The position numbers were made by a program, and so were the translations under genes. The notes under the pieces were generated by a model. The model searched no databases and was not told where the DNA came from. It saw only the letters and a list, made by a program, of their open reading frames with translations. Below, piece by piece: positions 6,982 through 30,052 of a stretch of 32,000 nt of DNA. The DNA lies in contig CAOKXF010000003.1 in the NCBI GenBank assembly GCA_948473335.1, positions 46,631 through 78,630 of the forward strand. The letters are read 5' to 3'. Numbering within the stretch: the stretch's first letter is position 1; every line of letters starts with the position of its first letter. This stretch comes from an uncultured Clostridium sp. (lineage in GTDB: Bacteria; Bacillota; Clostridia; TANB77; CAG-508).

Positions 6982-9984
<3,003 letters not shown>

Positions 9985-9998
9985 TAATTGATAAAATT

Positions 9999-10021
9999 AA
10001 GAGCAGGATTGTCCTGCTCTT
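9999..10021 (+). terminator. GC-containing hairpin just after the gyrB stop
   Basis: AAGAGCAGG-ATTGT-CCTGCTCTT. The downstream T-tract is weak, so termination efficiency is uncertain. Confidence 0.55.
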
Positions 10022-10575
10022 ATCCATAAAACTAATAATAATTTACTGCTAAAACCAATATACATAATTTTTGAATCTAATATATATTACTATATAAATA
10101 AACTCTCAACCACATATATTCATCAGTTGCTCGACTAATAATACACTCATAAAAACCATATTCATCCCAATGGGACTATTAACAATCCTTATTAAATATA
10201 AAATTAATCTTATCTCAAATATATTACATATAATTTAACCATATAGATTTATAAATAGTAATTATTTATAGATACAGCTTACATACACATAATATATTCT
10301 TATCGCCGACATATAATAATCCATAAAAATGAACTATTATATATCTTTGCCCGAATAATAATAAACTAATTATAATCTATTAATACTCTTGGAACAACTA
10401 TTATTAATCTTATGGTATTATTATGTGTATTTTATTTTTTTTTATTCAATTTATAATTATGAAAATTATGGAATATAAATTAAATTAAAAATATAAATAT
10501 TTATTTTATTAATTATATAATAAATATTTTTTATAATTAATAAATAATCAATAAAAAATAAATTAATTTTTTATT

Positions 10576-10591
10576 TGTCGAAAAATGTCGA
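10576..10591 (+). promoter_or_regulatory. direct repeat TGTCGA-AAAA-TGTCGA (candidate operator, T4SS block 1)
   Basis: This is the only CG-containing element in several hundred bp of near-pure AT. It has a 10-bp period and lies 30 bp upstream of the candidate -35. A near-identical copy lies upstream of block 2. Confidence 0.5.
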
Positions 10592-10620
10592 TGAAAAAAT
10601 AATATAAATATAAAAAACTA

Positions 10621-10649
10621 TTGCAAAAGGAATATTAATTTGTTAATAT
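10621..10649 (+). promoter_or_regulatory. candidate sigma-A promoter for T4SS block 1
   Basis: TTGCAA, 17 bp, TAATAT. It lies about 90 bp upstream of the first cistron. Confidence 0.4.
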
Positions 10650-10737
10650 ATTTCTATAAATTTTTTAGTAATATTTTTTCAAAAGTTTAATTCGAATTTT
10701 TAATTCTATTTTATCAAAAAAATAAAGGAGGTAAAAA

Positions 10738-11301
10738 ATAAAAAACAAATATAAAATAATTCAAGACTGGATTCCTATAAATGAAATATTGGAAGAAGGA
10801 ATTATTAAATTAAAAAATAATAATTATATAAAAGTATTAAAAATAAAACCAATTAATTTTAATTTAAAATCTAATTTAGAAAAAGAATCAATTTTAAATT
10901 CATATAAAAATTTTTTAAAAGCATGTAATTTTGATATTCAAATATTAATTCAAAGTAAAAAAGAAGATTTATCAAATCATTTTTCCAAAATAAAAAATAA
11001 TTTAGAAAAAGAAAAAAATAATATATTAAATAATTATTATGATGAATATTTTTATTTTATTAATAAATTAAATAATGAAAAGAAATCATCATCAAAAAAT
11101 ATTTTATTAATAATTAAAAATAATAATATTGAAAATAATTCTTCAGAAGAAATAATAATTCAAGAATTAAATGATAAATATTTTAAAATAAAAGATTATT
11201 TATCAAGATGTGGTAATAATGTATTTGAAATAAAAAAAGAAGAATTAATTAATATTTTATTTTCTTATTTTAATATTAATAAATATCAAAAAATAAATTA
11301 A
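10738..11301 (+). CDS. VirB4-family ATPase, N-terminal segment as a separate cistron (apparent ATA start)
   Basis: The frame is open from 10735. IKNKYKIIQDWIPINEILEEGIIKLKNNNYIKVLKIKPINFNLKSNLEKESILNSY matches the N-terminal signature of Firmicute VirB4 proteins (CD1110/Tn916-Orf16 type). That motif lies upstream of the first TTG (10789). AAAGGAGG precedes ATA 10738 by 6 nt. Confidence 0.65.
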   Translation: MKNKYKIIQDWIPINEILEEGIIKLKNNNYIKVLKIKPINFNLKSNLEKESILNSYKNFLKACNFDIQILIQSKKEDLSNHFSKIKNNLEKEKNNILNNYYDEYFYFINKLNNEKKSSSKNILLIIKNNNIENNSSEEIIIQELNDKYFKIKDYLSRCGNNVFEIKKEELINILFSYFNINKYQKIN

Positions 11302-11315
11302 AAAAGGAGTAAGAA

Positions 11316-13199
11316 ATAATAGAAAAATATATAAATAAATTAAAAAACAAAATAAAAAAAATATTAAAAAGTATTTTTACAGTTAGAGAAAATAATATAA
11401 AAAAAATAGATTTTTATGAAGGCGAATTTTCAAAAAAAGATTATTTATTACCTTCATATATAAATTTAGAAAATCCAAATTATATAGAAATTGATAATAT
11501 ATATTATTCAACATTAATTGTTGTAAATTATTATAGAGAACAAAGTGAAATATTATTAAAAAATTTAATAGAAAATAATATAAATATTAATATATCTATT
11601 TTTTACGAAAAACAAAATACTTATAAAACAATTAATGATTTAACATATCATATAGGTAATGTAGGCGTGGATATAAAAAATAATAATAACAGAAAAGATA
11701 TAGATATTGCTTCATATACATATAATGATGCTAAATATATTAGAAAAGAAATGCAAGTTAATAATGAAGAAATGTATTTTTTATATATTTATTTAAATAC
11801 ATATTCTAATGATAAAAAAGAATTAGAATATTTAATAGATAAAATAGAAGGATTATCTCAAAGTAGAGGTATGCAGACGAGAAAAGGTACATTTAGGCAA
11901 GAACAATGTTTTTTATCTTGTTTACCTATTATGAATAATGAGAGTGAAATAAAAGAAGTAGCGAAAAGAAATATTTTGACAAGTGGATTATCTTCAACAT
12001 ATCCTTTTATATCATCATCTATTTATGATGAAGAAGGTATTTTTATAGGTACTAATATTTATAATAATTCATTAATTTTTATAGATAGATATGATACAAA
12101 AAAATATAAAAATGCAAATATGTGTATTTTTGGGACAAGTGGCGCAGGAAAATCTTTTTATACAAAATTATTAATATTAAGATATAGATTATTAGGAATA
12201 GAGCAATATGTAATAGATCCAGAAAGAGAATATAATATATTGGGAGAAAATTTAAATGCAACAATAATTAAATTAGGTCCGAATTTTAACAATTATATTA
12301 ATATATTTGATATAAGAAAAGAAAGCATAGAGGAAAATGAAAACGGATATTTAGCAACAAAAATTTCTAAATTAATAGGATTTTTTAATTTGATTTTTGG
12401 AAATTTAGATGAAGAAGAAAAGGCTATTTTGGAAGAAAAAATAATAATGATTTATAAAGAAAAAAATATTACATTTGAAGATGACACATTATACAAAGAA
12501 GAAAATAATAAAATAATTTTTAAGGTTAGCACAGATATGCCAAAATTAGAAGATTTATATCGTATATGTGGACAAGATGAAAGAACTAAAAAATTAAAAA
12601 TAAAAATGATTCCGTTTGTAAAAGGTTCACTAAATTTTTTAAATAATTATACTAATATTGAATTAAATAATAAATTAATAATTGCAGATATTTATGATTT
12701 AGGTGAAGAAAATTTAAAATACGGAATGTATATATTTACAGAACTATTTTGGGATAAAATCAAATTAAATAGAAATATAAAAAAAGCAATTTATTTAGAT
12801 GAAATTTGGAGATTAATAGGTGTAACTTCTAATAGAGATGTTGCAAAATTTATTTACAAGATTTTTAAAACAATAAGAAAATATGGTGGCAGTAGTGTTG
12901 CAATTACACAGGATATTTCTGATTTATTTAGTCTAGAAGATGGAATATATGGAAAAAGTATTCTAAATAATTCTAGCATAAAAACATTTTTTTCTCTAGA
13001 AGAAGAAAATATAAATGTATTATCTAAATTTATTAATTTATCAGAAAAAGAAAAAGTCGAAATTAAATCTTTAAAAACAGGAGAATGTTTAATGTGTGTT
13101 GCAGATAATCATATTTTGAGTAAAATAGAATCAAGTGATTTTGAAAAAAATATTATTGAAAAAATAATAAAGGATAATTATTATTTAAATAATGATTAA
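11316..13199 (+). CDS. VirB4-family conjugation/T4SS ATPase, middle and C-terminal ATPase segment (apparent ATA start)
   Basis: The frame is open from 11313 with no ATG/GTG/TTG before 11667. The conserved region DYLLPSYINLENPNYIEIDNIYYSTLIVVNYY lies upstream of the GTG. AAGGAG precedes ATA 11316 by 6 nt. Walker A IFGTSGAGKS, VIDPEREY, Walker B IYLDEIWRL, ITQDISD. Confidence 0.85.
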   Translation: MIEKYINKLKNKIKKILKSIFTVRENNIKKIDFYEGEFSKKDYLLPSYINLENPNYIEIDNIYYSTLIVVNYYREQSEILLKNLIENNININISIFYEKQNTYKTINDLTYHIGNVGVDIKNNNNRKDIDIASYTYNDAKYIRKEMQVNNEEMYFLYIYLNTYSNDKKELEYLIDKIEGLSQSRGMQTRKGTFRQEQCFLSCLPIMNNESEIKEVAKRNILTSGLSSTYPFISSSIYDEEGIFIGTNIYNNSLIFIDRYDTKKYKNANMCIFGTSGAGKSFYTKLLILRYRLLGIEQYVIDPEREYNILGENLNATIIKLGPNFNNYINIFDIRKESIEENENGYLATKISKLIGFFNLIFGNLDEEEKAILEEKIIMIYKEKNITFEDDTLYKEENNKIIFKVSTDMPKLEDLYRICGQDERTKKLKIKMIPFVKGSLNFLNNYTNIELNNKLIIADIYDLGEENLKYGMYIFTELFWDKIKLNRNIKKAIYLDEIWRLIGVTSNRDVAKFIYKIFKTIRKYGGSSVAITQDISDLFSLEDGIYGKSILNNSSIKTFFSLEEENINVLSKFINLSEKEKVEIKSLKTGECLMCVADNHILSKIESSDFEKNIIEKIIKDNYYLNND

Positions 13200-13252
13200 T
13201 AAATTAATGATTTTATAAATAATAATAAAATATTATTTGGAAAAGGAAAAAA

Positions 13253-14218
13253 ATGAATAACATATTAGTTGCAATTTATAATCAAAAAATTTATGAAGAA
13301 TTACTAGAAGAAAAAAATATAAATATTATTAATAAAAATATTTTATATAAAGAAGGAATTCTTGAAATATTAGAAAAAAATTTTGAAATAAATTTTATAA
13401 TAATAAATGAAAAAATTCCAGGAGAAATAGAAATAATTAATTTAATAGATAAAATTAAAGAAATTAATAATAATATAAAAATAATATTAATAACAAAAGA
13501 AAATAAATATAAAAAAGATAATATATTTTTATTAAAGGAAGAAAATAAAAGAGATATATTAGATATAATTGAGAATAAAAAAGAATTGAAAAATGAAAGA
13601 GAAGAAATTATACAAATAGAAAAAATAAAAAAACAAATAGATGAAAAATTATTTTTTATAAAAGGAAATTCTGGTTCAGGAAAAAGTATAGTAGCTTCTA
13701 TATTAAGTTACCAAATATCAAAAATGGATAAAAAAGTATTATTAATAGATGGTGACATAGAGAAAGGAAATATTCATACAATATTTCAAGTAAAAAAATA
13801 TATAAATAGAACACAAAAAATATATAATAATTTATATTTTATTAATACAAATCAAGAAGAAATAATAAGAAAGGTTTTAACAGAAAAATATGATATTTTA
13901 ATTTTTGATAATTTTAATAAAAATTATATATTAGAAATAAATCATATAAATATTTATATATTGGAATCAAATTTAATTGAAATAGAGAAATTAAAAAATA
14001 ATATTACAGACAATTATTATAATGATTTTTTTATTATCAATAAATATAATAAAAATTCTATTGATGAAAAAATAATAGAAAATATATTTGAAAATAAAAA
14101 TATTTTAAAAATAAAATATAGTGACATTTATAATTCTTTAATAAATAATTTTAAGATGAAAAAAGACAACTTATATTTAAAAAGAATATATAAAAATGCA
14201 ATAAAAAAAATAATTTAA
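13253..14218 (+). CDS. ParA/MinD-superfamily P-loop ATPase with an N-terminal receiver-like (pseudo-receiver) domain, CpaE/TadZ-like architecture
   Basis: 321 aa. The N-terminal roughly 90 aa have a receiver-like beta/alpha pattern but carry NE (IIINEKIPG) where the phospho-Asp would be. The C-terminal half has IKGNSGSGKS and LLIDGD. Confidence 0.65.
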   Translation: MNNILVAIYNQKIYEELLEEKNINIINKNILYKEGILEILEKNFEINFIIINEKIPGEIEIINLIDKIKEINNNIKIILITKENKYKKDNIFLLKEENKRDILDIIENKKELKNEREEIIQIEKIKKQIDEKLFFIKGNSGSGKSIVASILSYQISKMDKKVLLIDGDIEKGNIHTIFQVKKYINRTQKIYNNLYFINTNQEEIIRKVLTEKYDILIFDNFNKNYILEINHINIYILESNLIEIEKLKNNITDNYYNDFFIINKYNKNSIDEKIIENIFENKNILKIKYSDIYNSLINNFKMKKDNLYLKRIYKNAIKKII

Positions 14219-14237
14219 TAAAAGGAGAAAAAAATAA

Positions 14238-14981
14238 ATGAATATACAAAATGAACTAGTAAAGGAAAAAAATTTAGAAATGAATGATCAAATAGAAACT
14301 AAACAAAAGAATTTTTTAGATTCTACTTTTGGAAAAATAATTAATAATGCAACTGACATTGGAATAAGATATTTATTACCAGATATAATAGAAGATGAAG
14401 TGATAGAAATAAAAGATGCATTATTTCAGAGTGGTTTTAAAGAAGCAATAAATACAGCCATTGATAGAGCTATTGATATGGGGAAAAGTGCTATCGGAAT
14501 TATAACAGGAAAATTCGATAATGTAACGCAAATACAAACAGCTGTAGAAAATGGAGGTATTATAGATTCTGTTTCTAATGTTCTAGATAATGTTGTTAAT
14601 AAGGCAAAAGATAAAGGATTAATTGATAAACCAGTAGCTAATATAATTAAAACAGGAAAAAATACTATTTTAGATAATGTTAGTAAAAATATAAAAGATA
14701 CTTTGACACAACAAGTTAAAGATGTAGAAAAGCTAGAGAGTTATGCTGAAAGTTGGAAAAAGTTCTACAGGGAACAAAATTTTAATGGTATGGAAAAAGA
14801 ATATAAAAAGATAGAAGAGAAGTTAACAAATCTAATTCCTTTGGAAAAGACTATTAATATGTCTAGAGAAATTCAAACAATTCATAATTTAATAAAAAAT
14901 AATGGACATAATTTTAATTTATCTTATGATGATTTAGCATTAGTAGAAAAATTTAATGAACTAGACAAAAATTCTATTTGA
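14238..14981 (+). CDS. hypothetical protein (predicted helical, soluble, no signal peptide or TM segment)
   Basis: 247-aa ORF with GGAG 10 nt upstream. By eye it is more GC-rich than the preceding cistrons. I recognise no family. Confidence 0.6.
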   Translation: MNIQNELVKEKNLEMNDQIETKQKNFLDSTFGKIINNATDIGIRYLLPDIIEDEVIEIKDALFQSGFKEAINTAIDRAIDMGKSAIGIITGKFDNVTQIQTAVENGGIIDSVSNVLDNVVNKAKDKGLIDKPVANIIKTGKNTILDNVSKNIKDTLTQQVKDVEKLESYAESWKKFYREQNFNGMEKEYKKIEEKLTNLIPLEKTINMSREIQTIHNLIKNNGHNFNLSYDDLALVEKFNELDKNSI

Positions 14982-15073
14982 ATTAAGGGTTAGTAAAAAT
15001 TTTTGGTAGGGTTATTTTGACTAATTATGTAAAATATGGTATAGTAAAGAATAAATGTATAGGAGGTTTTCAT

Positions 15074-15313
15074 ATGCTAAAAATATTAACACCAGAAGAA
15101 ATAGCACGGGAAAAGGAACAAATAAAAAGAAATCTATTATTATTAAGAGAATGCAAAGAATTAATAGGATTATCCACAAGAGAAATTCAAAAAAGACAAA
15201 GAGAATTGATTATTTCCAATGGGCGTGAATACTTAGATGAAGTTTTTTTTTCAAGGAAGTATTTAGAAGAAGCTAATGGAAATATCGAACTGGCAGCAGA
15301 ATTAATGATTTAA
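15074..15313 (+). CDS. small hypothetical protein (79 aa) with a UBA-like C-terminal helix pair
   Basis: AGGAGG 15061-15066 lies 7 nt before ATG 15074; the track's 15017 start is less likely. The C-terminal KYLEEANGNIELAAELMI resembles the EF-Ts-type UBA motif. Resemblance only. Confidence 0.55.
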   Translation: MLKILTPEEIAREKEQIKRNLLLLRECKELIGLSTREIQKRQRELIISNGREYLDEVFFSRKYLEEANGNIELAAELMI

Positions 15314-15381
15314 ATTTACACACCAAAAATTTAATTATCCGTGCGAGAAGAACCAAAAAAGGAAAGATGATTATCTATTGG

Positions 15382-15408
15382 AAAAGTCGCTGTAAAAGGC
15401 GATTTTTT
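15382..15408 (+). terminator. hairpin plus T-run ending block 1
   Basis: AAAAGTCGC-TGTAAAAG-GCGATTTTTT, with one mismatch in the stem. Confidence 0.5.
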
Positions 15409-15478
15409 CATTGATATATAGTGTATTTTTAATGAAAAAAATTTAAATAAAAATAAAGAAAAAAATAGACAAAAAACC

Positions 15479-15507
15479 TTGCAAAACCTGTATCCGTATA
15501 ATATAAT
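15479..15507 (+). promoter_or_regulatory. dedicated gyrA promoter
   Basis: TTGCAA (15479-15484), 17 bp, TATAAT (15502-15507). It lies about 40 bp upstream of the gyrA ATG. Confidence 0.6.
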
Positions 15508-15544
15508 ACACATATAAAAGATAAAGAAGAAAGAGGGAGAAACA

Positions 15545-17998
15545 ATGGATGAAGAAAAACAAGAGGGAATAATAATACAAAGAGACATCGATGAAGAAAT
15601 GAAAACCTCATATATCGACTATGCGATGAGCGTTATAGTGCAACGTGCATTACCAGATGTAAGAGATGGATTAAAACCAGTACATAGAAGAATTTTATAT
15701 GCAATGCATGAAGATGGAATTACATCAGACAAGCCATATAGAAAGTGTGCGAATACAGTAGGATCAGTATTAGGAAGATATCATCCTCATGGAGATAGTT
15801 CAGTTTATGATGCAATGGTAAGAATGGCACAAGATTTTTCTATGCGATATATGTTAATTGATGGTCATGGGAATTTTGGTTCAATCGATGGTGATGGAGC
15901 AGCAGCGATGAGGTACACAGAAGCAAGAATGTCAAAGATATCAGAATTTATGTTGACAGATATAGAAAAAAATACAGTAGATTTTATGCCAAACTATGAT
16001 GATAGATTACAAGAACCTACAGTATTACCTGCACAAATTCCAGCATTATTAGTAAATGGTTCATCTGGTATTGCCGTAGGTATGGCGACCAATATACCAC
16101 CACATAATTTAACAGAAGTTATCAACGGAATAATAAAAATAATAGATGAAGATGAAGTAACAGATGAAGATTTAATGGCGGTCATAAAAGGACCAGATTT
16201 TCCTACGGAAGGAATAATTCTAGGAATTGAAGGTATAAAGGAAGCATATAAAACGGGAAGAGGAAAAATTACTGTTAGAGCAGAAGCTGAAATAGAAGAA
16301 ATGCAAGGAAATAAGCAAAGAATAATAGTATCATCTTTACCATATCAAGTAAATAAAGCAAGGTTAATAGAAAATATTGCACATTTAGCTAGAGAAAAAC
16401 GTATTGAAGGAATATCAGAAATGCGTGATGAATCAGATAGAAATGATAGAGTAAGAATTGTAATAGAACTAAAAAGAGATGCAAATCCACAAGTAGTATT
16501 AAATCAATTATATAAAAATACACAAATGCAAGATACTTTTGGAATAATAATGTTAGCACTAGTAGATGGAGAACCTAAAATTTTAACTTTAAGACAATGT
16601 TTAGACTGTTATATAGAACATAGGAAACATGTAATTTTACGTAGAACGCAATTTGAATTAGATAAAGCATTAGCAAGAGCTCATATCTTAGAAGGATTAA
16701 AAATAGCTTTAGATAATATAGATGAGGTTATTAATATAATACGTAATTCATATGATGATGCAAAAGAGAAATTAATGGAAAGATTTGGACTTTCTGAAAT
16801 ACAAGCACAGGCTATATTAGATATGAGACTAAAAACATTATCAGGATTACAAAGAGAAAAAATAGAAGAAGAATATAAGCAATTAATGGAATTAATAGCA
16901 CATTTAAGAGACATCTTAAATAGTGAAAAATTAGTATTTGATATTATAAAAGAAGAACTTATAGCTATTAGAGACAAATTTGGAGATGAAAGAAAAACAA
17001 AAATAGTTGCAGCAGAAGGAGAAATAGATGTTGAAGACTTAATAAAAGAGGAACAAACAGTTATTGCTCTAACACATTTTGGATATATAAAGAGAATGCC
17101 AGTCGATACATATAGAAGTCAAAAACGTGGAGGAAAAGGAATAACAGGAATTGAAACTAGAGAAGAAGATTTTGTAAAACAAATATTTACAGCATCAACA
17201 CATGATACAATACTATTCTTTACAAATAAAGGAAAATTATATAGATTAAGAGGATATGAAGTGCCAGAAGCAGGAAGAACTGCAAAAGGAACAGCAATAG
17301 TAAATTTATTAAGTTTGGATTCTGGAGAAAAAGTATCAGCTATAATACCAATACAAAACTTTGCTGAAGGTAAATATTTATTAATGGCAACAAAAAATGG
17401 ATTAATAAAGAAAACAGCATTAGGAGAGTATAATTCATCTCGAAAAACGGGATTACAAGGTATAACATTAAAAGAGGATGATGAATTAATATCTGTAAGA
17501 CTTACGGATGGTGAGGATAACATCGTATTAGTTACAAGAAATGGTATGTGTATAACATTTGATGAAAAAGATGTACGACCAATAGGTAGAGTTTCTCAAG
17601 GTGTTATAGGTATTAGATTAGATGAAGATGATGAAGTAATTGGAATGGAATCTATAATAGCTGGTAGCAAGTCTACACTTCTTACTATAACTGAAAATGG
17701 ATTTGGAAAGAGAACAGAATTAGATGAATATAGAGTTCAAATAAGAGGAGGAAAAGGAGTTATAACATATAAAATAACACCAAAAACAGGAAAGCTAGTA
17801 GGAGCTAGGATAGCAAGTGAAGACGAAGATGTAATGTTAATTACAGATAGTGGAACAATTATAAGATTAAATGTAAATGATATTAGTGTTTTAGGTAGAC
17901 CTACACAAGGAGTTACTCTTATGAGAACATCAGATGGTGGAAAAGTTGTAAGTATTGAAACTATTTTAACAGATGATAACAAATCAGAAGAAGAATAA
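15545..17998 (+). CDS. gyrA: DNA gyrase subunit A
   Basis: 817 aa; [16 protein letters not shown], active-site region [11 protein letters not shown]-terminal beta-pinwheel repeats. Confidence 0.97.
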
Positions 17999-18018
17999 AA
18001 AAACAAAATATGAAAAAT

Positions 18019-18051
18019 AAAAAGAAGAAATTTAAAGTTTCTTCTTTTTTT
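18019..18051. terminator. bidirectional terminator between convergent gyrA and the helicase-loader gene
   Basis: AAAAAGAAGAAA-TTTAAAG-TTTCTTCTTTTT, with A/T runs on both sides. Confidence 0.7.
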
Positions 18052-18067
18052 ATATAAATACTATATA

Positions 18068-19069
18068 TTATTTAAATCTTAAATCTTCTCCAAAAAAATA
18101 ATAAATATCATAGTATCCACCAATTCTTGAACATATGCGTTCCTCATATTTACTTAAGATTTCATTCATATTTAAATTAGTAGAAATTATTGTTTTCGTA
18201 CATTTTGAATTTAGGTTCAATAGACGTGTATTTAAAATAGAGAATAATTCACTTATTTTCATACCATTTATATATTCTGTTCCTAAATCATCTATTATTA
18301 ATAAATCTACTTCTAAAATATTTTTATAGAATAAATCCTGTTCAGAATTTTTATATTTATTAAATTTATTATCTATAAGAGTTTCTAATAAAACAGGAGC
18401 TGTTTGGTAAAGTACACTATAACCTTTATTTAATATTTCTTTTGCAATACAATTTGTCATAAAGGTTTTTCCTGAGCCAGTATTTCCAGTAAATAGCAAG
18501 TTTTTATAATTAGGATTATTGAAATTGTCTATGAACTTTATACATTTTTCTTTAATATTTAAAATATTTGTTCTTGGTGATATATTTAACTTATATTTTG
18601 CTAAATTTACTTCATTTGAAAATTTATTTTCATTGAATGTAGAGAAGTTTTCTTTTTGTAAATTACACATATTAGATTTATTATATGATATGTCTAATAG
18701 TTTTTGCTTTAAACAATTACACATTTCAGTTCGGTTATTTTCAATAGTTATATATCCTGTATCTTTACATACATTGCATTCATACAGTGGTTTTAAGTAA
18801 GTTTCTGGAATATGATTTTCTGATAAAATCTGCTTTTTTTGTTTTTTCAAATTTTCAATTTTTGTATTTATATCATTTAAATTGTTAGATGAATTTAATA
18901 ATATATCTTTTGCAGACTGTATAGAATATTTATTTAATTCATCATCAATTTTTTGCAATTCAGGTATAGTTTTATATAGATTATTCTTTCGATTATCCAA
19001 ATCTAATTCTGATTTCATTCTCTTTCGTTCATATTCTTGTAATAAAGAATCTAATATTTCATTAGACAT
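18068..19069 (-). CDS. DnaC/DnaI-like replicative helicase loader (AAA+ with an N-terminal Cys cluster)
   Basis: GGAGG lies 5-6 nt before ATG 19069 (MSNEILDSLL...). CNVCKDTGY...CNC zinc-type motif, Walker A FTGNTGSGKTF, Walker B LLIIDDLG. Confidence 0.8.
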   Translation of the reverse strand: MSNEILDSLLQEYERKRMKSELDLDNRKNNLYKTIPELQKIDDELNKYSIQSAKDILLNSSNNLNDINTKIENLKKQKKQILSENHIPETYLKPLYECNVCKDTGYITIENNRTEMCNCLKQKLLDISYNKSNMCNLQKENFSTFNENKFSNEVNLAKYKLNISPRTNILNIKEKCIKFIDNFNNPNYKNLLFTGNTGSGKTFMTNCIAKEILNKGYSVLYQTAPVLLETLIDNKFNKYKNSEQDLFYKNILEVDLLIIDDLGTEYINGMKISELFSILNTRLLNLNSKCTKTIISTNLNMNEILSKYEERICSRIGGYYDIYYFFGEDLRFK

Positions 19070-20045
19070 TAGTACCTCCATTTTGTAAGTTTGCATATAA
19101 GAAGCTTAAATCATCATAGTGTCTTTGTTCAAATGATGCCTGAGACACTTGTTGATGTAATTTTTTCTCATCTTGTTTTTGTTTTTTACGTTGTTCTAAG
19201 AAGGCTTCTATTTCATGAGTGGTTTTTAGGTTTCTATCATGCCAATCACTAATAACATTATTTAGATATTCAAATGTTGGTGCAGATTTTAAGGTTGTTC
19301 TTTTTAAGGCAATTTCTATACAATTCATATCATAATTATATTCAAACAACCATTTTTCAATATAAGCTTCTTCATATTGAGTTAGAGAATTGTGCCTTCC
19401 TAATTTTTTTGCAATATCTTTTTTTATTTTTACAAGTTTATCTTGCTTTTGATAGTATACGTCCAAATCATTCCAAGTTTGAATTTTACTATTTCCCCAA
19501 GCTTCAGCAACTGCTTGTACGTAATTTTTGTGCAATGCTGAACGATTAAAGCAGTAATCAAATAAAGCTATCATTACTTGATCTTCAAAATTATAAGTTT
19601 TAAACCATAAATCTATATCGCTATACCAAGCTGGACTCATAATTCCTTGGAAATATTTATTGTTTATACATTCTATGACTTTAGCTCTTGATTTATTTTT
19701 TGATATTTCTTCGACTTTGTTAGAATCTGTTTTAAGATTAGGGGTGTATAGCTTATGTAGTGTTAGTTCTTGTAAATCTGTTATAAGATAACCATGTTCT
19801 TTTTTGGTGATTAAGTTATTTTTCTCTAAAAATGTTGTAGCTTCATTTATTGTTTTTAAAGGTAAAGATAATTTTTTTGATAAATCATTTAGTTTTATGT
19901 CTTTTTTATATTTAGCAAGAAATACTAAATACAAGTATATTTTTAAATAATCACCAGGCAATTGAGACAAAAAATCTACAAAAAAAACATCTGGCAAAGT
20001 TGTTTGTGAAAAGAGAAAAGATTTCTCTGTATTTTCTAATTTCAT
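19062..20045 (-). CDS. DnaD-domain replication initiation protein (Firmicute DnaB/DnaD family)
   Basis: ATG 20045 follows GGGGG/AGGGGGA. N-terminal winged-helix-like region, then two DnaD-type C-terminal repeats (...VQAVAEAWGNSKIQTWNDL... and ...YLNNVISDWHDRNLKT...). Confidence 0.7.
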   Translation of the reverse strand: MKLENTEKSFLFSQTTLPDVFFVDFLSQLPGDYLKIYLYLVFLAKYKKDIKLNDLSKKLSLPLKTINEATTFLEKNNLITKKEHGYLITDLQELTLHKLYTPNLKTDSNKVEEISKNKSRAKVIECINNKYFQGIMSPAWYSDIDLWFKTYNFEDQVMIALFDYCFNRSALHKNYVQAVAEAWGNSKIQTWNDLDVYYQKQDKLVKIKKDIAKKLGRHNSLTQYEEAYIEKWLFEYNYDMNCIEIALKRTTLKSAPTFEYLNNVISDWHDRNLKTTHEIEAFLEQRKKQKQDEKKLHQQVSQASFEQRHYDDLSFLYANLQNGGTNV

Positions 20046-20072
20046 ATTTATTCCCCCTACTGATTTTGTCAA

Positions 20073-20101
20073 ATTATATCATTTTAAGGGAAATAAAACA
20101 A
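20073..20101 (-). promoter_or_regulatory. candidate extended -10 promoter for the dnaD-like/dnaC-like pair
   Basis: The minus strand reads TTGTTT, 17 bp, TG-A-TATAAT. It lies in the 60-bp gap between the PrgI-like stop and the dnaD-like start. Confidence 0.4.
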
Positions 20102-20105
20102 GAGA

Positions 20106-20405
20106 TTAAGAAGTTTTTCTTGGGACTTTTTTAAATACATAAACTTTTGGTCTTAGAAAGTATTTTACTATGTACTTTAACACATATATTATATTTTCTC
20201 CGTTAAAACCAATGATACTAAATAATAAAAGAGGAAAAGACAGTAATATAAATACAAATATTTTTATTTTTAAGTTTATTGAAAATATACTTAATAGTGC
20301 CCAAACTAATATATACCAAATAATATTAAATATTGCTGTAGAATAATCGAGTATTCCTAATATTTTGGATTTAAAATTATAATTTTGTGGAAATATAAAT
20401 TTCAA
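20106..20405 (-). CDS. PrgI/TcpE-family (VirB3-like) small membrane protein
   Basis: 99 aa. TTG start 7 nt after GGAGG. N-terminal FPQNYNFKSKILGILDYSTAIFN followed by two TM helices. It sits next to the VirB6-like gene, as in Firmicute conjugative elements. Confidence 0.55.
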   Translation of the reverse strand: MKFIFPQNYNFKSKILGILDYSTAIFNIIWYILVWALLSIFSINLKIKIFVFILLSFPLLLFSIIGFNGENIIYVLKYIVKYFLRPKVYVFKKVPRKTS

Positions 20406-20409
20406 TAAA

Positions 20410-21276
20410 TCACCTCCTTATTCCCACAGAGTGTGAAATATTTGTGGAAATTCCACCTATAAATTCACGTACAAATGAATTTGCTTTTATTAAGGCATAA
20501 ATTGCTCCTATATATAGAAATTTTACTAGTAAATTTCCTGATGAATAATCCATTGAAAATATGACTAATAAAACTAGTGATACTACTATTTGAATAAAAA
20601 GTAATGAAAATAGATTTTTAATCCAGGATTTAAAAAACCAAGAAGTAGAAGAAATTGATAATGATAATATTGCAAAAGGGGTTATTAATACAAATATTTT
20701 TATCATTATATATCTAAATGAATAAGAGAATATTAATGATAGTAAAGAAATAGAGAGTGTTGATTTTATTATTCCATCTAGTGAAAAAATATTTAATGAA
20801 GTAGAGTCAATTGATATTGTTGAATTTATTGTATTTATTAGTGTTGAAAAACAAATTTGAGTATTAAATAGAGTTTCTCCTAAATTTCTTATAGATAGTG
20901 TTATTGTAGAAAATAAAGATAAAAATTGTTCTAGTATGAAATATGAAAAGTTCATACATGTTCCACATATAACTAATTTAAAGATAAATTGATATGGAGA
21001 TTCTATTTGTAAAGAATTTAAATGTGACATTAAATATTTTATTGAATAATATAGTAAAAAACCTAATAAAAAAGAATTAGATATTAATAATATTCCATCT
21101 GATAATGATGTTCCTAATATTTTTTCGAAATATTTATCTATCAATATGTCTTCACTTATAAATGTTATATCATCTAATACGCCATATAGATTATTGTCTA
21201 TTGAAGAAAAAAGATTTTGAAGTATAGTATTTATTGTATTCATAATTGTATCTGTTATATTTGCTGTTTCTTCCAA
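20410..21276 (-). CDS. VirB6/TrbL-like polytopic membrane protein
   Basis: 288 aa. TTG start after GGAGG. Soluble N-terminal helix followed by at least five hydrophobic helices. Its size and position match CD1112-type VirB6 proteins. Confidence 0.6.
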   Translation of the reverse strand: MEETANITDTIMNTINTILQNLFSSIDNNLYGVLDDITFISEDILIDKYFEKILGTSLSDGILLISNSFLLGFLLYYSIKYLMSHLNSLQIESPYQFIFKLVICGTCMNFSYFILEQFLSLFSTITLSIRNLGETLFNTQICFSTLINTINSTISIDSTSLNIFSLDGIIKSTLSISLLSLIFSYSFRYIMIKIFVLITPFAILSLSISSTSWFFKSWIKNLFSLLFIQIVVSLVLLVIFSMDYSSGNLLVKFLYIGAIYALIKANSFVREFIGGISTNISHSVGIRR

Positions 21277-21285
21277 AAGACCTCC

Positions 21286-21615
21286 TTATGATATTAATGA
21301 TTTTATGGCAGATAAAATTAAATCGGTTGCTAATATAAAGCCATAGGAAAATAAAGAACCTCTTATAATCTTTTTTCCTGTTTTTATTTTTTCTTCATCA
21401 CCAAAACTGAATTTTTTAATAAATATTCCTGAACCTATAGCTACTGCAGCAGCTGGAGTAGCTAAGTTTATTAGCCATCCAGAGATATTTTCAAAAGCAT
21501 TGTTAATCTTTGATATTAATTTTGGGGTAGATGCTTGTACAGATGGTGTTAGAAAAAGTATAAAGAAAATAGAAATTATTACCAATTGTATAAGAATATA
21601 TTTCTTATTTGTCAT
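21286..21615 (-). CDS. VirB2/TrbC- or Maff2-like small secreted membrane protein (pilin-like)
   Basis: 109 aa. Signal peptide ending VQA/S, then two hydrophobic helices split by the charged loop KKFSFGDEEKIKTGKK. The start overlaps the upstream ATPase gene by 11 nt. Confidence 0.5.
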   Translation of the reverse strand: MTNKKYILIQLVIISIFFILFLTPSVQASTPKLISKINNAFENISGWLINLATPAAAVAIGSGIFIKKFSFGDEEKIKTGKKIIRGSLFSYGFILATDLILSAIKSLIS

Positions 21616-23326
21616 TATTTTCTCCTTTCGTTTTTAAAAAATATGGAAACATTTGTAATTTGCAAGGTTTTAAGATTTTTGTTCCATCTGATAAAAATGC
21701 AAGGCTGTGAAAGGTTTCTAGTTTTTGTGTAAAATAGTTTGTGTCATATACGAAATCATTTTGTGTGTATGTATTATAGCTTTCAGATACATTAGAATCT
21801 TGAGAGTTAAATGTGTTTGTTATATAGCTAAACTTTGTTGTTTTTGCACTTTCTGAAATAGTTTGTGAGGTCTTCTCTTTTTCTTCTTTCCCTAGCTGTT
21901 TTTGTGCTTCTTCTATTGTGAAAGTGTCATCGGTTCTAAACCATATTTTGTTTATTAAGTTTTGAATTATAACTTTTGTAGATGTGTCATCATGTAATGT
22001 GTTTTTTAGAGATGAATAACTTTGTGTGCTTACTATATTTATACATTTAGCTTCTCTACTTAGTGAAAAAAATTGACTATCTGATTTTGTGATATATTCA
22101 GAATATTCGTCACAAATGAAAGCAGTTTTCTTCTTTATGTTTTTTGAAAGAGTAGAAAGTATTTCAGTTTGAAAATCTAGTTTTAGATATGCTGCAATTA
22201 TTTTTGATAGATTCTTGTATTCTGAGATGTTCATATTTAATATTACTATTTTACCATTTAGTATTGTGTCCTCAAATCCTGTAAAAGTAAGTTCATTTTC
22301 TTGCGGACAGAAGGTTTTGGCGATATCATAATCTGAAACAAATATATTTGTTATCCTAGTAATTTCTGATTTTAGAATAGATAAAGTTCTTTGATCTAAA
22401 GAAAATAATTCTTTTTGAAAAAATTCTAACGAAGAGTTTAAATTATATATTTCTTGTACAGATAATTTTGCCTGAATAAATAGATTTCTTAAAGTTTCTA
22501 TTTTTTCTTTATAGTAATCAGGTAGTGTTATTAATTTGTGTATTTCCGTAAAATTTACATAGCCATTATTGTATAATCTACATATTTTAATGCATTCTGC
22601 TAATGTTTGTTCAGCTTTATCTAACCAATAAGATTCTTGATTATTTTCTGAAAATAATTCTAATATAGTTCTAAGCCTATTTGCTAAGACTTGAGGCCTT
22701 AAATGGGGTTTGTGTAAAGGGTTATAACGTATATCAGAATTTAATTCTATTATTATTAAATCATCTTCTAGGTTGTTGTTTTTTACATATTTTTTTACTT
22801 GCTCATAATAATTTCCTTTTACATCTAATATTAGCATTCCTATTTTATCATTTTGATTATTCTTGTTGTATTTGATTAACTGTTCTGTAAATGGATACAT
22901 GGCAGAACTGGTTTTACCTGATCCTATTGTACCAGTAATTAAAAAATTTTGATATAATCCTAATTCAGAAATATATATTGTTTTATTATTAGTAATATCT
23001 TCTCCTATTAGTAAATTTAATTTTGTTTGAGGTTTGTTATTATCATTATCTTGGATATTAATATGCTTATTTGCTAATTTAAAAAGATTATTATAAATGA
23101 AATTAGCTAGTACAATATTAGAAAATATAAAAGTAATTATAAAACTTATTTTTATATAGTTCCAAAGTTGAGGATTTGTATCACATATATTGAATGGATG
23201 TATTCCATATGTTATTATTATCTGGTCTGCTTTAAAAATAGGTAAAAATGTAATTATCCCTAATAAAAAACATATTATTAGAAATACTAATATAAAAGTG
23301 AACCTATTTAAATGATTTTTTATTAT
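21605..23326 (-). CDS. type IV coupling protein-like ATPase (VirD4/TraG/TraD family), apparent ATA start
   Basis: The track ORF starts at M 22900, but the frame is open up to 23326. That upstream stretch encodes two N-terminal TM helices and the Walker A GTIGSGKTSSA, which sits immediately before that M. No ATG/GTG/TTG is in frame upstream. AAGGAGG precedes ATA 23326 by 5 nt. LILDVKGNYY; Walker B AFICDEYSEY. Confidence 0.8.
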   Translation of the reverse strand: MIKNHLNRFTFILVFLIICFLLGIITFLPIFKADQIIITYGIHPFNICDTNPQLWNYIKISFIITFIFSNIVLANFIYNNLFKLANKHINIQDNDNNKPQTKLNLLIGEDITNNKTIYISELGLYQNFLITGTIGSGKTSSAMYPFTEQLIKYNKNNQNDKIGMLILDVKGNYYEQVKKYVKNNNLEDDLIIIELNSDIRYNPLHKPHLRPQVLANRLRTILELFSENNQESYWLDKAEQTLAECIKICRLYNNGYVNFTEIHKLITLPDYYKEKIETLRNLFIQAKLSVQEIYNLNSSLEFFQKELFSLDQRTLSILKSEITRITNIFVSDYDIAKTFCPQENELTFTGFEDTILNGKIVILNMNISEYKNLSKIIAAYLKLDFQTEILSTLSKNIKKKTAFICDEYSEYITKSDSQFFSLSREAKCINIVSTQSYSSLKNTLHDDTSTKVIIQNLINKIWFRTDDTFTIEEAQKQLGKEEKEKTSQTISESAKTTKFSYITNTFNSQDSNVSESYNTYTQNDFVYDTNYFTQKLETFHSLAFLSDGTKILKPCKLQMFPYFLKTKGENNDK

Positions 23327-23564
23327 GAGAACCTCCTTATCTTTAATTTTAATTTTGCACCTTGTTGGTTATGGAAAATTTTTATTTCAAAAAATGTATA
23401 TATTGAATATAAAGTTATTAAAATATTAATAAAATAGATTATAAAAAAAATGTTGATTAATTTTAAAATGTGATTTCACCGCCTTGCAGTTTGGATAATA
23501 TAATATTTTTTTTCATTTGTCTATACTTTTTATAAAAAATATGATAAAATATATAAAAACTTTA

Positions 23565-23579
23565 CGACAAAATTCGACA
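23565..23579 (-). promoter_or_regulatory. direct repeat TGTCGA-ATTT-TGTCG (second copy of the candidate operator)
   Basis: The minus strand reads ATGTCGAATTTTGTCGT. It has the same half-site, 10-bp period and orientation relative to the T4SS genes as 10576-10591. It also overlaps the likely promoter of the divergent DUF1858 gene. Confidence 0.5.
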
Positions 23580-23610
23580 TTTATAATTATAATAGAAAGG
23601 GGATGAGTTT

Positions 23611-23796
23611 ATGAAATTTAATAAAGATACACAAATTGGTGAACTTTTAGAAGTTGCTCCAGAAAAAGCAGAAATATTATTAGAAGCAGGAATGCATTGT
23701 TTAGGTTGTCCTGCATCACAAATGGAGACATTAGAAGAAGCATGTGAAGTTCATGGAATAGATGTAAATGAATTATTAGAAAAATTAAATGCATAA
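23611..23796 (+). CDS. DUF1858-type small redox-disulfide protein (hybrid-cluster-protein-associated family)
   Basis: 61 aa; IGELLEVAPEKAEILLEAGMHCLGCPASQMETLEEAC is the characteristic CxxC-containing domain. Confidence 0.7.
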   Translation: MKFNKDTQIGELLEVAPEKAEILLEAGMHCLGCPASQMETLEEACEVHGIDVNELLEKLNA

Positions 23797-29687: not shown

Positions 29688-30052
29688 GAATCGTATACTA
29701 AATTTTCTAACTGATTTACTCTGTTATTTTGTTTGTTTTCTAAGTTTGAAAGCATTTCTTCTGGTAATTCATTGTAATTGTTGTCGATATAATCTTCTGT
29801 ATTTTTATAGTTACTTATTAAATTTTCTATTTGTTTATTTCTTGTATCTAAAGTAGTTTCTAAAATTTGATTTTTTAACACCTTAATTTCTTTTTCACGT
29901 GTATTTTGTTTTTCCCTAGCATTTTGCTTATTTTTTGGATTTCCTATTTCAGAATATTGTTCCAAATGTCTTTGTGTTCTAGTATGATTTTCAACAACAT
30001 TAATCAAATTATCTATTTGACGTTCCTTTTTTTCTGAATTATTATTTTCCAT
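29672..30052 (-). CDS. hypothetical N/Q/E/K-rich coiled-coil protein (weak resemblance to Tlp-type small spore proteins)
   Basis: 126-aa ORF with GGAGG upstream. IDNLINVVENHTRTQRHLEQ...REKQNTREKEI. The family assignment is tentative. Confidence 0.45.
   Translation of the reverse strand: MENNNSEKKERQIDNLINVVENHTRTQRHLEQYSEIGNPKNKQNAREKQNTREKEIKVLKNQILETTLDTRNKQIENLISNYKNTEDYIDNNYNELPEEMLSNLENKQNNRVNQLENLVYDSKEGK

Follow-up and report, generated by a model that had tools for sequence, protein, structure and literature searches.

Tandem 0A boxes upstream of two type IV secretion-like operons point to probable Spo0A control in an uncultured gut Clostridium

We analysed a 32-kb stretch of DNA (the window) from an uncultured Clostridium sp. 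(contig CAOKXF010000003.1), in which two separated gene blocks resembling a type IV secretion system (T4SS) are each preceded by a short direct repeat. Both repeats are pairs of 0A boxes in the geometry documented for a dimer of Spo0A, the response regulator that acts as the master switch for stationary-phase entry and sporulation in Firmicutes, and binding by Spo0A is predicted from their sequence. We consider it likely, with a probability of about 0.7, that the tandem boxes bind dimers of phosphorylated Spo0A (Spo0A~P) and would couple both T4SS-like operons to the Spo0A~P level. In the proposed mechanism, a Spo0A~P dimer would bind each tandem site upstream of a sigma-A-type promoter. The block-1 promoter would drive a split VirB4, a ParA-like gene and the gene for a conserved 247-aa protein (p247), the block-2 promoter would drive a leader peptide, the type IV coupling protein (T4CP) and pilin-like, VirB6-like and VirB3-like genes, and expression of both operons would be tied to the Spo0A~P level of the cell. 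The motif itself is textbook, and what is of interest is its attachment to a T4SS-like apparatus; no such target is among those of Spo0A that the cited papers discuss, and a literature search for T4SS linked to Spo0A returned nothing relevant.

Both sites were read from the sequence. At block 1, the boxes TGTCGAA-AAA-TGTCGAT (TTTGTCGAAAAATGTCGATG) occupy 10576-10592 on the plus strand, and at block 2, the boxes TGTCGAA-TTT-TGTCGTA (AATGTCGAATTTTGTCGTAA) occupy 23579-23563 on the minus strand. The shorter repeats reported in the original prediction, TGTCGAAAAATGTCGA at 10576-10591 (+) and TGTCGAATTTTGTCG at 23579-23565 (-), sit where it had placed them and share the same orientation toward their downstream T4SS-like operons, as it had said. 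Box 1 is a perfect TGTCGAA in each site (10576-10582 (+) and 23579-23573 (-)), and the second boxes (TGTCGAT in block 1, TGTCGTA in block 2) carry one mismatch apiece. The boxes run head to tail with a 3-bp spacer and a 10-bp period, at both window sites and at the orthologous sites in related genomes. A search of both strands of the window for TGTCGA-N4-TGTCG with at most one mismatch gave two matches, which are these two sites, and a scan for TGTCGAA-N3-TGTCGAA found each of them with one mismatch, all other matches having three mismatches and lying in coding DNA at chance level. The TGTCGA hexamer occurs four times in total, and the remaining copy, expected within a coding region, was found at 29782 (TGTCGAT). 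By shuffling of the window, 0.05 matches to TGTCGA-N4-TGTCG are expected and 1 of 100 shuffles gave two; this expectation and the conservation across species agree with the earlier judgement that the recurrence was unlikely to be a coincidence. Two further explanations of the pair were rejected. First, a duplicated promoter region is not supported, as the two sites are alike in their boxes alone. Second, the boxes were considered as -35 elements, since a consensus scan lists TTGTCG-17-AATAAT and ACGACA-18-TATAAT, but these are at chance level, the density at which promoter-like hexamers occur in window DNA, and the conserved promoters lie elsewhere.

The 0A box has TGTCGAA as its 7-bp core; Spo0A from either B. 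subtilis or C. difficile recognises it and contacts the bases G2, C4 and G5 (PMC3485338). The window sites share this core and its A/T flanks with the 0A sites of abrB, spoIIG and spo0A Ps in B. subtilis and of spo0A and sigH in C. difficile. They also resemble the sites of these two species in being tandem and head to tail with a 10-bp period, and in lying less than about 100 bp upstream of genes, adjoining sigma-A-type promoters (PMC3485338, PMC12090719). At the phi29/Nf A2c promoter, two 0A boxes 3 bp apart form a footprinted Spo0A site of 25–30 bp, to which Spo0A~P is bound as a dimer (PMC2731898). The 0A-1 site of A2c is thus like the present ones in its box spacing and in lying just upstream of, and partly over, a strong sigma-A promoter, and A2c is a promoter of an element of mobile origin, as are the T4SS-like genes here; unlike phi29/Nf, however, the element studied here is fixed in the chromosome and vertically inherited. 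A2c is shut off by Spo0A in sporulating cells, where the tandem boxes adjoining the strong promoter exclude RNA polymerase, whose footprint extends to -51 (PMC2731898). Elsewhere, upstream 0A boxes activate sigma-A or sigma-H promoters (spoIIG, spo0A Ps) and downstream boxes repress (abrB, spo0A Pv) (PMC12090719). What differs from the known Spo0A regulon is the target, a T4SS-like apparatus, and the host, an uncultured low-GC gut Clostridia lineage.

Phylogenetic footprinting, which the original prediction had proposed for both intergenic regions, found the block-1 boxes to be widespread and the block-2 boxes to be kept in the subclade of the window. For block 1, the gyrB/traC-like intergenic region was available from 70 species. 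TGTCG was present on the operon strand of this region in 64/70, and box 1 was a perfect TGTCGAA in 57/64. Ten bases downstream, box 2 had at most two mismatches in 32/64, compared to 1.2% of random 7-mers from the same regions. Among the contacted bases of box 2, G2 (57/64) and C4 (48/64) were best kept, followed by G5 (31/64), and the positions of the 3-bp spacer were unconstrained. In 45/64, box 2 is followed at a distance of exactly 9 nt by a perfect TTGACA, with TAAAAT 17 nt further on. A census of 2.1 Mb of related loci gave 117 perfect copies of TGTCGAA, with 66 in the gyrB/traC-like intergenic region on the operon strand and 6 between DUF1858 and T4CP on the strand of the latter; there was no enrichment around dnaA or dnaN in these loci. 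As a near-invariant box matching the pan-Firmicutes 0A box recurs across at least 64 species, a conserved global regulator is indicated.

In the window itself, the candidate sigma-A promoter of the block-1 operon is TTGCAA-17-TAATAT at 10621-10649 (+), with TTGCAA at 10621-10626, TAATAT at 10644-10649 and a TG two bases 5' of the -10, proposed from sequence and positional homology; transcription is predicted to start near 10656. Its location is the one originally noted; however, the match is just 8/12 and the candidate is absent from the consensus-scan list. It aligns with the TTGCAA/TTGCAT promoters of the relatives L017, L021 and L090 (L numbers denote related loci), a homology that was assigned by eye, as MAFFT placed no gap for the extra 19 nt. 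These are about 19 additional A/T-rich bases that the window species carries between box 2 and the -35 (10593-10620). Most relatives, including the close L179 and L181, keep the 9-nt spacing without them. Tandem block-1 boxes at the consensus 9-nt spacing are also present in L179, L180 and L181, which are subclade relatives or come from their metagenome-assembled genomes (MAGs).

The block-2 operon has a sigma-A-type promoter, TAGACA-17-TATTAT at 23523-23495 (-), with an A/T-rich element (ATTTTATCATAttTTTT) upstream, identified from sequence and conservation; the boxes end 39 nt upstream of TAGACA. This promoter, with a predicted start near 23488 (-), had been proposed at the same place. Together with its upstream element it is almost invariant in some 60 distinct metagenome loci, which share the form ATTTTAtCAtAaATTTTnAAAAAAGTATAGACA-N17-TATTAT, followed by the ribosome-binding site (RBS) AAGGCGGTGA of a leader open reading frame (ORF). 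The divergent DUF1858/T4CP arrangement is likewise kept in about 60 distinct loci from metagenomes, with a T4CP 63–69% identical to that of the window. Of 61 distinct promoter regions of block 2 from more distant relatives, 59 had no TGTCG. The tandem boxes were present in 8/8 members of the subclade of the window (T4CP at least 72% identical to the window's), with sites reading TGTCGAAtttTGTCGTA in L175, TGTCGAAttgTGTCGTA in L176, TGTCGAAttaTGTCGTA in L177, TGTCGCCccaTGTCGAA in L178, TGTCGAAtttGGTCGAC in L181, TGTCGAAtttAGTCGAC in L182 and TGTCGCTtttTGTCGAA in L183. Within the subclade, the spacers vary (TTT, TTG, TTA, CCA) and the boxes are kept, and the variant boxes GGTCGAC, AGTCGAC and TGTCGCC all retain G2, C4 and G5. 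The boxes keep a constant 39–40 nt from TAGACA, and their distance to the DUF1858 start varies between 22 and 88 nt; as the first distance is fixed and the second variable, the site belongs to the T4CP promoter. Judged by this distribution, the block-2 site is a gain at the base of the window's subclade and the block-1 site is older. A separate element is found just upstream of the block-2 -35, at 23524-23562 (-): this sequence (ATTTTAtCAtAaATTTTnAAAAAAGTA) is almost invariant in about 60 distinct loci (L092–L170), including ones that have no boxes, and might act as an UP element or bind a second regulator.

The original prediction had taken the repeat for a shared operator, and the separated blocks for a unit that is still co-regulated. 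A shared operator, under selection, does exist in the window's subclade; it is not private to the system, being the consensus 0A box of a global regulator. Since both operons carry the site in this subclade, the reading we favour there is that one factor controls both, but an ancestral link between the blocks did not hold, as block 1 alone carries the site in the wider family. The offsets from the -35s in the window (28 and 39 nt) differ by 11 bp and would place the two sites on nearly the same helical face relative to the -35s, which we regard as suggestive only. We infer that the binder is Spo0A, from a gene outside the window, and that its binding alters transcription.

Several points weigh against Spo0A control or against a particular sign of it. 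Neither the window nor 2.2 Mb of related loci, all of them oriC neighbourhood, yielded spo0A or a sporulation gene; the tblastn searches (Spo0A, SASP, SpoIIID, SpoVT, SpoVG) used B. subtilis queries and covered oriC neighbourhoods only, so this negative is uninformative. The presence of spo0A in the genome is assumed from membership of the class Clostridia. In the block-1 footprint, TGTCG was the alignment anchor, so that positions 1–5 of box 1 are invariant by construction; independent of the anchor are the occurrence in 64/70 species, positions 6–7, box 2 and the constant offset to the promoter. The window has 28 nt between box 2 of block 1 and the -35, compared to 9 nt in the family consensus. 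Turning to sign, the family-consensus block-1 promoter (TTGACA-17-TAAAAT) is near-perfect and should need no activator, and its boxes at about -61 to -45 resemble A2c, an analogy by which control may be repressive, at least in most of the family. As a side observation, a search on the order TANB77 showed only that it includes spo0A-positive MAGs, from which we draw no claim for the present organism.

For the window's subclade, we lean slightly toward activation over repression, since the boxes lie 28 and 39 nt from the non-consensus -35s TTGCAA and TAGACA, too far for simple occlusion. At A2c the boxes adjoin the promoter, and the family-consensus box 2 ends 9 nt before the -35; at the window distances of 28 and 39 nt, occlusion of RNA polymerase would be less likely than at A2c. 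The spoIIG and spoIIE promoters are suboptimal, whereas most species here have boxes abutting a near-consensus promoter.

Four other explanations were considered. The one that survives best, although we think it unlikely, is that a dedicated regulator (an OmpR-type response regulator, an XRE protein or the ParA/CpaE-like protein) uses the direct repeat as its operator, which would look like a 0A box by coincidence. Winged-helix response regulators, too, typically bind direct repeats with a 10-bp period, the ParA-like gene lies in block 1 and is conserved with it, and an XRE homologue is present in L178, which is the sole subclade locus with enough flank and the sole locus with XRE matches. However, TGTCGAA is exact at 7/7 positions in 57/64 species and at both window sites. 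The regulators that the original prediction put forward also find little support. The XRE proteins at 25.7 and 26.7 kb are not co-conserved with the site, as no homologue was detected in 32 related loci that have the neighbouring CBM gene, and inverted repeats are the usual targets of XRE repressors. No DNA-binding domain was matched in the ParA/CpaE-like protein, which is about 41% identical across the family, in contrast to the near-invariant box.

Less probable again is that the block-2 boxes mainly serve the divergent DUF1858 gene (23611-23796 (+)), either as a roadblock in its leader or by promoter overlap. The start codon of this gene is 31 nt from the boxes, a weak plus-strand promoter (ACGACA-18-TATAAT, 23564-23593) overlaps them, and the divergent DUF1858/T4CP order is found in nearly all loci that extend far enough. 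However, it is the distance to the T4CP -35 that is fixed (39–40 nt), not that to the DUF1858 start (22–88 nt), the orientation of the boxes to the operon is always as at block 1, and the overlapping plus-strand promoter would leave almost no leader before the RBS. We consider a non-transcriptional role very improbable, whether as centromere-like iterons for the ParA-like ATPase or as sites through which Spo0A or another protein acts on replication near oriC. The locus is 5–19 kb from dnaA-dnaN, Spo0A binds 0A boxes at replication origins (PMC2731898) and a ParA-like ATPase is encoded beside block 1, but the fixed -35 offsets (9 nt in the family, 39–40 nt in the subclade) tie the sites to promoters, each site has two repeat units only, and TGTCGAA is not enriched around dnaA/dnaN in related loci. 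Finally, functionless chance recurrence in A/T-rich DNA, which could appeal to the 1 of 100 window shuffles that also gave two matches and to the chance density of promoter-like hexamers, is effectively refuted by the comparative data: orthologous sites exist in 64/70 species at block 1 and 8/8 subclade members at block 2, spacers drift while boxes stay, and 66 of the 117 TGTCGAA copies fall in one intergenic region.

The location of the boxes predicts that a highly conserved, relaxase-less, chromosomal T4SS-like apparatus of one abundant lineage of uncultured gut Clostridia is wired to Spo0A, and it offers a testable handle on when the machine is made. The two sites also illustrate regulatory evolution, with an old site at block 1 and a matching site at the second operon later acquired by one subclade. 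A more speculative extension, which we hold to be doubtful, is that the T4SS-like set is a domesticated, Spo0A-switched developmental machine that works with a previously undescribed, roughly 400-nt structured RNA encoded upstream of block 1 and for which the subclade recruited the second site, placing the two operons under one switch. If true, it would serve a developmental programme such as stationary-phase DNA exchange or a sporulation-linked translocation step.

The window is an oriC neighbourhood of about 24% G+C from a low-GC gut Clostridia MAG. It begins with jag, yidC, rnpA and rpmH (-), continues with dnaA, dnaN, recF and gyrB (+), and reaches block 1 (traC-like, virB4-like, parA/cpaE-like, p247) after gyrB, followed by gyrA and by dnaI/dnaC-like and dnaB/dnaD-like genes (-). 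Block 2 (-) comes next, in transcription order leader ORF, T4CP, pilin-like, VirB6-like and VirB3-like, and beyond it lie DUF1858 (+), tRNAs, an SDR gene and further genes. In block 1, the traC-like gene (10738-11301 (+), apparent ATA start) corresponds to the N-terminal part of a split VirB4, matching positions 2–174 of the NCBIfam CD1110-family VirB4 (E 2.9e-9); PF26593 is recorded on a product identical to its protein. The C-terminal part has its counterpart in the VirB4-like ATPase (11319-13199 (+), apparent ATA start), with matches to Pfam P-loop_TraG (E 4.4e-19) and AAA_10 and to positions 175–730 of the same NCBIfam model (E 2.8e-83), where its score of 280 bits is below the 325-bit equivalog cut-off. 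Its homologues are about 73–80% identical in many MAGs. The ParA/CpaE-like ATPase (13253-14218 (+)) matches Pfam CbiA (E 6.5e-9) and has a weak receiver-like N-terminus (Response_reg, E 0.0039). The last conserved gene of block 1, p247 (14238-14981 (+)), has no family match and was traced by tblastn in 64 related loci at about 50% identity.

In block 2, the T4CP-like ATPase (23326-21605 (-), 573 aa, apparent ATA start) matches Pfam TrwB_AAD_bind (E 1.5e-12; 47.6 bits vs a cut-off of 20.5 bits) and TraG-D_C. The VirB2/T4SS pilin-like small protein (21286-21615 (-)) was assigned by a Pfam T4SS_pilin match (E 3.4e-5, below the gathering score) together with synteny. The remaining two proteins have no family match and were placed by synteny: a polytopic membrane protein of 288 aa (20410-21276 (-)) is VirB6-like by size, hydrophobicity and position only, and so is a small membrane protein of 99 aa (20106-20405 (-)) VirB3-like.

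The T4SS-like genes are interleaved with gyrB, gyrA and the dnaB/dnaI-like genes in 80 or more species-representative genomes and in 80 metagenome loci (L011–L183; window 8020-23326). GyrB and VirB4 of those genomes share about 83% and about 73% identity, respectively, with their counterparts in the window, and the closest plasmid VirB4 is at most 35% identical. None of the window ORFs that were scanned matched a relaxase family; some small ORFs were outside the scan, and a relaxase may be encoded elsewhere in the genome. Taken from sequence and gene order, this indicates a diverged, domesticated T4SS-like apparatus that is vertically inherited with the chromosome, and not an integrative and conjugative element (ICE). 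The system resembles the Gram-positive CD1110-type conjugative T4SS of Clostridia ICEs and plasmids in its VirB4-like, VirD4/TraG-like, pilin-like and polytopic membrane proteins and in operon order. It differs in that VirB4 is split into two genes, in that the genes are interleaved with gyrB, gyrA and dnaB/dnaI-like genes beside oriC, and in that all hidden Markov model scores fall below curated cut-offs according to our comparison list, although T4CP is above its cut-off for TrwB_AAD_bind. In some relatives, transposases (DDE_Tnp_IS240 and rve) lie inside or beside block 2 (L178 4845-6275; L171 and L173 18821-19804). In L178, T4CP no longer adjoins the genes for the pilin-like and VirB6-like proteins, so that some lineages, at least, have a disrupted system.

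The genes directly downstream of both sites are intact. We considered whether they are pseudogenes or decaying ICE remnants, given that their ORFs are truncated when called from ATG, GTG or TTG, and rejected this as the frames are open and conserved further upstream. No ATG, GTG or TTG is present at the conserved N-termini of the traC-like gene (10738), the virB4-like gene (11319), T4CP (23326 (-)) and the leader ORF (23469 (-)), and these four genes appear to start at ATA or ATT, 5–9 nt after a strong Shine-Dalgarno sequence. The first ATG of T4CP is downstream of its Walker A motif and the frame is continuous upstream; the subclade relative L176 has the same ATA at the T4CP start. As a result of these apparent non-canonical starts, gene callers truncate the proteins (431 aa, 510 aa). 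The leader ORF (23469-23323 (-)) encodes a hydrophobic peptide of 48 aa, with an ATT start after the RBS already given and a stop that overlaps the T4CP start. This peptide is found family-wide, L092–L170 included, at 44–53 aa and with the pattern I-x-x-L-I-N-x-F-F-I...F-H-x-x-Q-G-S-K-L-K-I-K-K, and in 41 of 58 related loci it opens with ATT, ATC or ATA. Its role is probably that of a small membrane component missed by annotation or of a device for translational coupling.

The gyrB terminator and the block-1 boxes flank a noncoding element roughly 400 nt long (9998-10430 (-)), which merits a study of its own. Its structured core runs from 10413 to 10026 (-) and is followed by a terminator hairpin at 10022-9998; an RNA start is predicted near 10420 (-). 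Across about 60 related species, the nucleotide identity of the element is 68–86%. In an alignment of 21 species, the minus strand folds into 12 helices with 132 pairs. Pairing holds in 98% of cells (34–46% with partners slid) and 67 pairs show compensatory changes (13–21 in the slid controls), values not reached in any of 500 shuffles. For the consensus fold, the energy is -110 kcal/mol on the minus strand and -6 kcal/mol on the other, and a YGAGCNAA motif recurs in four single-stranded linkers. Rfam 15 gave no match at the gathering threshold or at E up to 1, and tRNA and tmRNA scans of the element returned nothing. By its covariation, it behaves as a large, strongly covarying structured RNA without an Rfam family. 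The element is oriented divergently from block 1, and the 0A boxes lie between the two, at a position that is fixed relative to the T4SS promoter and not to the RNA.

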